From a virus (Duplodnaviria > Heunggongvirae > Uroviricota > Caudoviricetes), in IMG/VR virus record IMGVR_UViG_2534682078_000023: 11,296 bases of DNA; one strand, given 5' to 3'. Made by a program: the position numbers and the translations under genes. The notes under the pieces are model-generated. The model was given only the letters and a program-made list of their open reading frames with translations. It was not told the origin of the DNA and searched no databases. Below are positions 7,905 through 11,296 of the stretch, piece after piece; position 1 is the stretch's first letter; every line of letters starts with the position of its first letter.

Positions 7905-10028
7905 ACCGGTAGGCGATCTGGTCGTTGATTTAAGTCTGGATGCGGCCAGATTTGACGAGCAGATGGCCAGAGTCAGGCGTCATTTTTCCGGTACGGAAAG
8001 TGATGCGAAAAAAACAGCGGCAGTCGTTGAACAGTCGCTGAGCCGACAGGCGCTGGCTGCACAGAAAGCGGGGATTTCCGTCGGGCAGTATAAAGCCGCC
8101 ATGCGTATGCTGCCTGCACAGTTCACCGACGTGGCCACGCAGCTTGCAGGCGGGCAAAGTCCGTGGCTGATCCTGCTGCAACAGGGGGGGCAGGTGAAGG
8201 ACTCCTTCGGCGGGATGATCCCCATGTTCAGGGGGCTTGCCGGTGCGATCACCCTGCCGATGGTGGGGGCCACCTCGCTGGCGGTGGCGACCGGTGCGCT
8301 GGCGTATGCCTGGTATCAGGGCAACTCAACCCTGTCCGATTTCAACAAAACGCTGGTCCTTTCCGGCAATCAGGCGGGACTGACGGCAGATCGTATGCTG
8401 GTCCTGTCCAGAGCCGGGCAGGCGGCAGGGCTGACGTTTAACCAGACCAGCGAGTCACTCAGCGCACTGGTTAAGGCGGGGGTAAGCGGTGAGGCTCAGA
8501 TTGCGTCCATCAGCCAGAGTGTGGCGCGTTTCTCCTCTGCATCCGGCGTGGAGGTGGACAAGGTCGCTGAAGCCTTCGGGAAGCTGACCACAGACCCGAC
8601 GTCGGGGCTGACGGCGATGGCACGCCAGTTCCATAACGTGACGGCGGAGCAGATTGCGTATGTTGCTCAGTTGCAGCGTTCCGGCGATGAAGCCGGGGCA
8701 TTGCAGGCGGCGAACGAGGCCGCAACGAAAGGGTTTGATGACCAGACCCGCCGCCTGAAAGAGAACATGGGCACGCTGGAGACCTGGGCAGACAGGACTG
8801 CACGGGCATTCAAATCCATGTGGGATGCGGTGCTGGATATTGGTCGTCCTGATACCGCGCAGGAGATGCTGATTAAGGCAGAGGCTGCGTTTAAGAAAGC
8901 AGACGACATCTGGAATCTGCGCAAGGATGATTATTTTGTTAACGATGAAGCGCGGGCGCGTTACTGGGATGATCGTGAAAAGGCCCGTCTTGCGCTTGAA
9001 GCCGCCCGAAAGAAGGCTGAGCAGCAGACTCAACAGGACAAAAATGCGCAGCAGCAGAGCGATACCGAAGCGTCACGGCTGAAATATACCGAAGAGGCGC
9101 AGAAGGCTTACGAACGGCTGCAGACGCCGCTGGAGAAATATACCGCCCGTCAGGAAGAACTGAACAAGGCACTGAAAGACGGGAAAATCCTGCAGGCGGA
9201 TTACAACACGCTGATGGCGGCGGCGAAAAAGGATTATGAAGCGACGCTGAAAAAGCCGAAACAGTCCGGCGTGAAGGTGTCTGCGGGCGATCGTCAGGAA
9301 GACAGTGCTCATGCTGCCCTGCTGACGCTTCAGGCAGAACTCCGGACGCTGGAGAAGCATGCCGGAGCAAATGAGAAAATCAGCCAGCAGCGCCGGGATT
9401 TGTGGAAGGCGGAGAGTCAGTTCGCGGTACTGGAGGAGGCGGCGCAACGTCGCCAGCTGTCTGCACAGGAGAAATCCCTGCTGGCGCATAAAGATGAGAC
9501 GCTGGAGTACAAACGCCAGCTGGCTGCACTTGGCGACAAGGTTACGTATCAGGAGTGCCTGAACGCGCTGGCGCAGCAGGCGGATAAATTCGCACAGCAG
9601 CAACGGGCAAAACGGGCCGCCATTGATGCGAAAAGCCGGGGGCTGACTGACCGGCAGGCAGAACGGGAAGCCACGGAACAGCGCCTGAAGGAACAGTATG
9701 GCGATAATCCGCTGGCGCTGAATAACGTCATGTCAGAGCAGAAAAAGACCTGGGCGGCTGAAGACCAGCTTCGCGGGAGCTGGATGGCAGGCCTGAAGTC
9801 CGGCTGGAGTGAGTGGGAAGAGAGCGCCACGGACAGTATGTCGCAGGTAAAAAGTGCAGCCACGCAGACCTTTGATGGTATTGCACAGAATATGGCGGCG
9901 ATGCTGACCGGCAGTGAGCAGAACTGGCGCAGCTTCACCCGTTCCGTGCTGTCCATGATGACAGAAATTCTGCTTAAGCAGGCAATGGTGGGGATTGTCG
10001 GGAGTATCGGCAGCGCCATTGGCGGGGC
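7897..10028 (+). pseudogene. H: Tail tape measure protein H (lambda gpH-like), truncated after about 711 codons by IS insertion
   Basis: Translation MAEPVGDLVVDLSLDAARFDEQMARVRRHFSGTESDAKK... ...LLKQAMVGIVGSIGSAIGG is recognised as lambda gpH (about 853 aa in lambda). From 10029 the frame reads IS-derived codons ([16 protein letters not shown]), so the C-terminal ~140 aa of H is separated or lost. Confidence 0.88.
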
Positions 10029-10082
10029 TGAACCGCCCCGGAAATCCTGGAGACTAAACTCCCTGAGAAAGAGGTAAACAGG

Positions 10083-10409
10083 ATGACTAAAAATACTCGT
10101 TTTTCCCCCGAAGTCCGTCAGCGGGCGATTCGTATGGTTCTGGAAAGTCAGGATGAATATGACTCACAGTGGGCGGCAATTTGTTCCATTGCCCCAAAGA
10201 TTGGCTGTACGCCGGAGACTCTGCGTGTCTGGGTTCGCCAGCATGAGCGGGATACCGGGGGCGGTGATGGTGGGCTCACCAGCGCTGAACGTCAGCGTCT
10301 GAAAGAGCTGGAACGTGAAAATCGTGAACTGCGCCGCAGTAACGATATCCTTCGCCAGGCTTCCGCTTATTTTGCGAAGGCGGAGTTCGACCGCCTCTGG
10401 AAAAAATGA
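10083..10409 (+). CDS. IS629-like transposase OrfA
   Basis: Translation [108 protein letters not shown] (108 aa). A GAGG-type ribosome-binding site lies upstream. Confidence 0.88.
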
Positions 10410-11296
10410 TGCCACTGCTGGATAAGCTGCGTGAGCAGTACGGGGTCGGACCGGTATGCAGCGAACTGCATATTGCCCCGTCAACGTATTACCATTGTCA
10501 GCAACAGCGACATCATCCGGATAAACGCAGTGCCCGTGCGCAGCACGACGACTGGCTGAAGAGAGAGATACAGCGCGTATACGATGAAAATCATCAGGTG
10601 TACGGTGTGCGTAAAGTCTGGCGTCAGTTGTTACGAGAAGGAATCAGGGTGGCCAGATGTACAGTGGCACGTCTCATGGCGGTTATGGGACTTGCCGGTG
10701 TTCTCCGGGGTAAAAAGGTCCGTACGACCATCAGCCGGAAAGCCGTTGCCGCAGGCGACCGCGTAAACCGTCAGTTCGTGGCAGAACGACCTGACCAGCT
10801 GTGGGTGGCTGATTTTACTTACGTCAGCACATGGCAGGGCTTCGTCTATGTGGCGTTTATCATTGATGTGTTTGCCGGATACATCGTGGGGTGGCGGGTC
10901 TCATCGTCTATGGAAACGACATTCGTGCTGGATGCGCTGGAGCAGGCGTTGTGGGCCCGTCGTCCGTCTGGCACCATCCATCACAGCGATAAAGGCTCTC
11001 AGTATGTGTCACTGGCCTATACGGAGCGACTAAAAGAAGCCGGATTACTGGCATCAACAGGGAGTACAGGCGACTCGTATGACAACGCGATGGCTGAGAG
11101 CATCAATGGTCTTTACAAGGCGGAGGTAATACACCGTAAGAGCTGGAAAAACCGTGCAGAAGTGGAACTGGCCACACTAACGTGGGTGGACTGGTATAAC
11201 AATCGACGATTGCTGGGAAGGCTGGGCCATACTCCTCCGGCAGAAGCAGAAAAAGCTTATTATGCTTCCATCGGAAACGATGATCTGGCAGCCTGA
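10406..11296 (+). CDS. IS629-like transposase OrfB (DDE integrase-core domain)
   Basis: Translation [30 protein letters not shown]...[36 protein letters not shown]...[10 protein letters not shown]...[22 protein letters not shown]...LAA* (296 aa), in the -1 frame relative to OrfA with an ATGA overlap on an A6 run (10401-10406). It may also be expressed as an OrfAB fusion. Confidence 0.88.

Follow-up and report, generated by a model that had tools for sequence, protein, structure and literature searches.

The window analysed here, a stretch of 11,296 nucleotides, is a prophage remnant at a tRNA-Arg gene next to fimZ in enterohaemorrhagic Escherichia coli (EHEC) O111:H8/H-, and it closes inside an insertion sequence (IS) that directly follows a broken tape measure gene. 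RefSeq annotation of the same locus in strain 11128 (locus sequence L001, in which window position x is position x+4501) gives, after the tRNA-Arg gene, C-terminal fragments of an integrase and of an S49 head protease, then a decoration protein, the major capsid protein and FI genes, a head-tail joining gene interrupted by a further IS3-family element, Z-, U-, V-, G- and T-type tail genes, a truncated H and finally IS1203. The features on which the argument turns are the following.

1-633, minus strand: fimZ (RefSeq annotation of the strain 11128 locus)
876-952: tRNA-Arg (RefSeq; Rfam tRNA, 72 bits)
7897-10028, plus strand: tape measure gene H, cut short: the first 710 of the 853 codons of lambda H and 2 nt (Pfam, TIGR01541, lambda H alignment, RefSeq)
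7897-10077, plus strand: hybrid reading frame (726 aa) that passes from H into residues encoded by the IS (open reading frame list, translation)
10026-10028, no strand: left flank GGC of the element; the right flank in the source genomes is TAA(GC), with no target-site duplication
10029-11296, plus strand: IS1203 (IS629 isoform, IS3 family), first 1,268 of 1,310 bp, in the same orientation as H; full copy in strain 11128
10029-10053, plus strand: left terminal inverted repeat TGAACCGCCCCGGAAATCCTGGAGA; 22 of its 25 positions agree with the right end read in reverse complement
10083-10409, plus strand: orfA, 108 aa, helix-turn-helix DNA-binding protein (Pfam HTH_Tnp_1, 47.3 bits)
10364-10480, plus strand: programmed -1 frameshift region with an ALIL pseudoknot (Rfam RF01497)
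10406-11296, plus strand: orfB, 296 aa from ATG, in the -1 frame relative to orfA, with a DDE integrase-core catalytic domain (Pfam HTH_21; rve, 96.9 bits)

The frame of H starts at 7897 and is broken after codon 710, at 10028, so that 710 complete codons and 2 nt precede the IS, in line with the roughly 711 lambda-like codons given by an earlier note made from the letters of the window. IS1203 begins with the next base: the junction reads ...GCCATTGGCGGGGC/TGAACCGCCCCGGAAATCCTGGAGACT..., the T of TGAACCGCCCC being position 10029, and the surrounding positions 10000-10060 are GGGAGTATCGGCAGCGCCATTGGCGGGGC/TGAACCGCCCCGGAAATCCTGGAGACTAAAC. The open frame of H runs on for 16 codons into the element before stopping at 10077. 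That an IS629-like element truncates H is borne out by this arrangement, as is the claim that the window stops within the element: its last base is that of the orfB stop codon (11296), and the missing 42 bp include the right inverted repeat.

The truncated protein contains the Pfam domains TMP_2 (235.7 bits) and Tape_meas_lam_C (75.7 bits), matches TIGR01541 over profile positions 2-229 of 332, where the match is broken off, and shares 99.3% amino-acid identity with lambda H (J02459, 853 aa; 10542-12632) over residues 1-697; RefSeq annotates it as a partial tape measure protein lacking its C-terminus. Domains, synteny after G/T and identity are those of lambda gpH, at a length of 710 of 853 codons. 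Judged by its sequence, the gene is lambda H itself, not merely a lambda-like gene, and in its truncated form it is a pseudogene of the lambda gpH family. In strain UTME-6 (locus L006) the truncated H has undergone an extra deletion of ~246 bp, corresponding to window positions 9658-9903, with an 11-bp overlap at the join.

IS3-family elements move by copy-out-paste-in, using an OrfAB DDE transposase made via a -1 frameshift. The element at the end of the window encodes a DDE transposase with an rve domain, has its two frames in phases 0 and -1 with a frameshift signal, and is bounded by imperfect TG...CA repeats. Fused OrfAB (404 aa) scores 366.3 bits against the IS3 family transposase model NF033516 (cutoff 160) over profile positions 1-369 of 369, and the ALIL match scores 121.5 bits (gathering score 50) over its full length, 1-117. 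Slippage could occur at either of two runs, TTTTG (10370-10374) or AAAAAAT (10401-10407), across both of which the -1 frame of orfB is open (from about 10340); no paper in the literature searched stated the frameshift site of IS629.

The right end was read in strain 11128, where the identical locus holds the full element (L001 14530-15839, 1,310 bp) with TG...CA termini; reverse-complemented it is TGAACCGCCCCGGGTTTCCTGGAGA, the partner to which the left repeat was compared. RefSeq names the element at this locus 'IS3-like element IS1203 family transposase', and plasmid copies, which RefSeq likewise annotates as IS1203 family, are identical to it at 1,310 of 1,310 bp. IS1203, an IS common in EHEC, is an isoform of IS629 and was first found in O111:H- (PMC3271280). 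A length of 1,310 bp and near-identity to named copies, named here by RefSeq annotation, place the element within IS629/IS1203, as the earlier note had proposed, and the Pfam and NF033516 matches of OrfA and OrfB and the RefSeq name fit that identity. The element as a whole is an intact IS1203, an IS629 isoform of the O111 type. The copy in the window differs from the same-locus copy of strain 11128 by two synonymous changes in orfB, at 10636 and 11119 (CGA versus CGG, AAG versus AAA). Bit scores indicate the same two differences between the window and the other same-locus copies of finished O111 genomes, which implies either that the strain behind the window lies outside the genome collection or that its IS was assembled from mixed copies.

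A search of complete E. coli genomes recovered the exact junction of H and IS1203 in 47 independent genomes and only in those of O111:H8/H-/NM; a scan of species-representative genomes, with one genome per species, did not return it, as would be expected. The earlier note had taken the IS as a hint of an EHEC or Shigella background, and the restriction of the junction to this EHEC lineage agrees with that. Many finished O111:H8/H-/NM genomes match the whole window at 100.0% identity as printed, the two mismatches being deduced from bit score. Because the window stops inside a multicopy IS, and because its copy differs by two synonymous bases from every same-locus copy in complete genomes, as mixed copies in a draft could, a contig broken or mis-joined at the repeated element has to be considered. 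The same left and right junctions, however, recur in the 47 independently finished genomes, and the window ends exactly at a stop codon, which resembles a cut at a gene boundary rather than the end of a contig; we reject an assembly artefact on these grounds and give it almost no credence.

Nothing inside the window contradicts a simple insertion, after which H would resume beyond the right repeat and M, L, K, I and J would follow just past the window. The part of the IS that lies past the window measures only 42 bp, less than the extension of about 100 bp that had been proposed. In strain 11128 the right end of IS1203 runs directly into TAAGCAAGAACGTGCTGCGGTTGGATG (the flank begins TAAGCAAGAACG...), followed by a SAM-dependent methyltransferase gene on the opposite strand, a tail-fibre-assembly (tfa) remnant, an alpha/beta hydrolase gene, ompT, envY and nfrA. 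The same holds in every one of the 47 complete genomes with the junction: the loop of a hairpin (described below) and the methyltransferase gene stand where H should resume, and no independent assembly with the junction continues H after the IS. The flanks, GGC on the left and TAA on the right, form no target-site duplication. Of what the earlier note had placed beyond the window, if present, the right repeat is there and the 3' part of H and M-L-K-I-J are absent. A synthetic query joining the right end, GGC and the 3' part of H found that junction in none of 5,426 complete E. coli genomes, which indicates that the missing part of H was deleted and not relocated. In strain 8B the match to the window is split in two pieces, and the structure is ordinary. 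A simple insertion, refuted in every sampled genome with the junction, is rejected and retains a negligible probability; IS1203 marks a deletion junction instead.

The flanks bear out the alternative that the earlier note had named, an IS-mediated rearrangement or deletion. In E. coli O121:H19 RM8352 the prophage exists in a fuller form at the same tRNA-Arg gene, 97-99% identical in the shared parts, with a methyltransferase protein identical to that of the O111 prophages. There H has all of its 853 codons, and behind it come M, L, K, I, J (which an IS interrupts), lom, the tail fibre gene stf and tfa. Projected onto the RM8352 locus (L003), the O111 breakpoints fall at 33037/33038, the end of the left flank, and at 44959/44960, the start of the right flank. 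Between them lie 11,922 bp that are missing from the O111 prophage: the 3' end of H, then M, L, K, I, J, lom, stf and tfa. On the right, the break falls within an 11-nt loop. The hairpin to which this loop belongs, CCGCAGCACGT-CTTAAGCAAGA-ACGTGCTGCGG, has a perfect 11-bp stem and is a terminator between the convergent tfa-side and methyltransferase genes; its left arm has been lost in O111. An IS3-family element is expected to be flanked by a direct duplication of 3-4 bp; that this copy lacks one is accounted for by the 11.9-kb deletion beside it and bears on the history of the copy, not on its family.

The deletion in H is one of several losses. Most of the integrase gene is gone from the O111 remnant, as are the genes for terminase and portal; the protease gene has lost its 5' part, and the head-tail joining gene is not intact. 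Early, regulatory and lysis genes are absent from both the O111 and the O121 copies. The earlier note held that the IS abolishes tail length determination and tail assembly, which is true but moot given the losses of integrase, early, lysis, terminase and portal functions: the prophage is already non-functional, and the loss of the H C-terminus is real but is not what disables it. The tRNA-Arg gene at 876-952 adjoins the integrase remnant, and the O111 and O121 prophages are both integrated there; it is presumably the attachment site. We take the position of the remnant to be that of the DLP12-type cryptic prophage of E. coli K-12 at argU. At window positions 1250-1254 the C-terminal fragment of the integrase gene (minus strand) meets the C-terminal fragment of the S49 protease gene. 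At this join 8,282 bp are missing relative to O121 (L003 17243-25524). Among the contents of that segment in O121 are an IS629 copy, W, the genes for terminase and portal, and the protease gene's 5' part. The join itself has no IS left, which suggests that this deletion took its IS along.

In our reading, which we consider likely, IS1203 occupies the point where an IS-associated deletion cut into a decayed lambda-like prophage, and the locus took shape along the insertion-deletion-excision pathway known from IS3-family elements. IS1203 would first have inserted at one of two sites, in H or in the hairpin loop. A deletion anchored at one end of the element would then have taken out everything as far as the other site and left the IS in place, either by mis-targeted strand transfer by the transposase or by a break-and-rejoin event, and the resulting allele would have become fixed in the O111 lineage. 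Three strains, discussed below, would later have lost IS1203 together with 5 flanking bp, joining at a 2-bp GC microhomology, the product expected of excision that depends on the transposase and on the IS-excision enhancer (IEE). We infer the order of events and the original insertion site, as no intermediate allele, with the IS and its duplication in H or in the hairpin loop, was found: among the 5,426 complete E. coli genomes, synthetic queries joining the hairpin loop to the left end, or the right end and GGC to the 3' part of H, returned only non-identical nearby insertions, and a scan of the metagenome collection for both kinds of simple-insertion intermediate found none. Copy-out-paste-in transposition alone does not predict adjacent deletions, and this counts against the reading that we favour.

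The same structure would also follow if two direct copies of IS1203, one in H and one in the hairpin loop, had recombined homologously, deleting the 11.9 kb and leaving a hybrid IS. Exactly one intact IS, no duplication and clean flanks are what such an exchange predicts; O111 genomes have about 35-40 places that match the query, and the same IS type occurs ~75 bp away in H (E300082) and ~290 bp from the hairpin (Z1323CEC0019). Recombination of this kind nevertheless requires two independent insertions within one 12-kb stretch before the deletion, and no genome carries an IS at either exact site with its own duplication. We hold it to be less likely than a deletion anchored at a single IS1203 copy, the alleles sampled being compatible with both.

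Three O111 strains, E2863, SF26 102-1 and UTAK-22, have the same H breakpoint and no IS1203, with the junction GGCGGGGC/AAGAACG; that of UTAK-22 is one G shorter, and the same assembly has a single-base indel in the other IS of the remnant. Relative to the IS-bearing allele, the IS-less allele lacks 1,315 bp, made up of IS1203 and TAAGC, with a GC dinucleotide at both edges. The existence of such alleles could indicate that illegitimate recombination between H and the hairpin made the deletion first and that the IS entered the finished junction later, the IS-less allele being ancestral. In O121, however, TAAGC forms part of the uninterrupted original prophage sequence (CGTCT-TAAGC-AAGAACG), and an insertion cannot restore five lost bases; the IS-bearing allele retains 5 bp more of the ancestral sequence, so the IS-less allele must be the derived one. 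An insertion would moreover have given a duplication of 3-4 bp, which is absent, and IS-bearing genomes outnumber IS-less ones by 47 to 3 in O111. An ancestral IS-less allele is rejected on the TAAGC argument, and a deletion preceding the IS seems to us very improbable. The three strains could descend from a single event; their local SNPs offer too few differences to tell one clade from several.

The loss of the IS in these strains fits what would be expected of excision promoted by IEE, and each step of the proposed history has backing in the literature. IEE has been reported in O111:H8 and O121:H19 and has microhomology-mediated end-joining activity, and its excisions come with IS-adjacent deletions of a few nucleotides to more than 40 kb (PMC9943667, where Kusumoto et al. 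2011 is cited on IEE-promoted IS excision). In an insertion-deletion-excision model, IS3-family elements delete adjacent DNA and are then excised (PMC8860574); such losses typically join at microhomologies of 2-4 bp and remove about the length of the IS, and the published mechanisms for IS-adjacent deletion are still models (bioRxiv 10.1101/2023.06.07.543989). A full-length iee gene, ~100% identical to ECs_1305 of strain Sakai, is present in at least three of the window-bearing genomes (2015C-3108, 08-4347 and 2013C-4361), and derived alleles lacking an IS join at short microhomologies, the 2-bp GC here and a 6-bp CCGGAT at a second element in strain 9662. For the three IS-less strains we infer a role of IEE from how their junctions are built, together with the presence of iee in the lineage; a 2-bp microhomology alone is weak evidence for such excision. 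RefSeq names the Sakai gene (L008 38953-41313) a 'TOTE conflict system archaeo-eukaryotic primase domain-containing protein', which files IEE under conflict or defence systems and not under IS biology. In O157 strain 111 the iee gene is interrupted by an IS3-family element.

The FII-type head-tail joining gene is split by the second IS3-family element of the remnant, which is 1,258 bp long (window 3990-5247). The terminal sequences of this element, TGTAGTGG...CCACTACA, are presumably IS911-like, and its flanks, TCT and GCC, form no target-site duplication. In the O121 prophage J is interrupted by an identical copy, there flanked by a TTT duplication. O111 strain 9662 is without this element, the join lying at the CCGGAT repeat and the gene being left frameshifted. 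An Rfam match to isrC, 'Hfq binding RNA' (RF01387, 150 bits, window 4058-4180), falls wholly within the 5' end of this element and the start of its transposase gene and so reflects IS sequence, not an independent small RNA gene. A solitary 25-bp remnant of an IS629 right end, TGAACCGCCCCGGGTTTCCTGGAGA, lies on the minus strand ~620 bp upstream of window position 1 (L001 3857-3881), inside an sfmH/fimH pseudogene that is frameshifted in the O111 strains and intact in O121; an IS that was excised imprecisely seems to have left it as a scar.

The element, its location and the phenomenon have each been annotated or described before, and this is known biology; the main value of the analysis is a correct annotation, of a deletion junction in a dead prophage and not a fresh knockout of a working tail gene. 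The junction places the window in the EHEC O111:H8 lineage and, being specific to that lineage, might be used as a marker for typing. Together, the alleles with and without the IS are a small natural example of IS excision at microhomologies in a lineage that carries iee. Conceivably, though we would not put it at even chances, natural isolates preserve at this locus every one of the three stages of a pathway, insertion-deletion-excision, for which the evidence has so far come mainly from plasmid experiments: an intact tail module in O121, the IS at the junction of the 11.9-kb deletion in most O111 strains, and a scar alone in three. A parallel loss has befallen the second IS3-family element, and a 25-bp IS629 end is left in neighbouring sfmH. 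If IEE is responsible, the region would be a ready natural test bed for how IEE and transposase shape the decay of EHEC prophages.

Set beside other systems, the element resembles the IS629/IS1203 copies of EHEC and Shigella in its 1,310 bp, its imperfect repeats beginning with TGAACCGCCCC, its orfA and orfB in frames 0 and -1, its ALIL pseudoknot and its rve domain. It differs from them in lying at a deletion junction without a flanking target-site duplication, and, as the IS1203 subtype, it shares no more than 95.4% identity with the IS629 copy of the O121 prophage. With the known systems of IEE-promoted excision and IS-adjacent deletion the O111 lineage shares iee, an IS3-family element at a deletion junction, and derived alleles that have lost the IS and a few bp at 2-bp and 6-bp microhomologies; unlike those systems, the evidence from O111 is comparative only, and the large O111 deletion kept its IS instead of removing it. 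Phage lambda has the same gene order of G, T and H and the same TMP_2 and Tape_meas_lam_C domains in its 853-residue gpH, to which the window protein is 99.3% identical over residues 1-697, whereas the H of the window lacks the last 142-143 residues, carries an IS-encoded tail in their place and is followed by none of the tail-tip genes. The DLP12 prophage at argU of K-12 presumably has the same position, at a tRNA-Arg gene by fimZ, with a methyltransferase gene and a tfa remnant towards ompT, envY and nfrA, and is likewise a decayed lambdoid remnant; the O111 remnant differs in keeping head and tail genes of lambda type, namely D, E, FI, Z, U, V, G and T and a portion of H.
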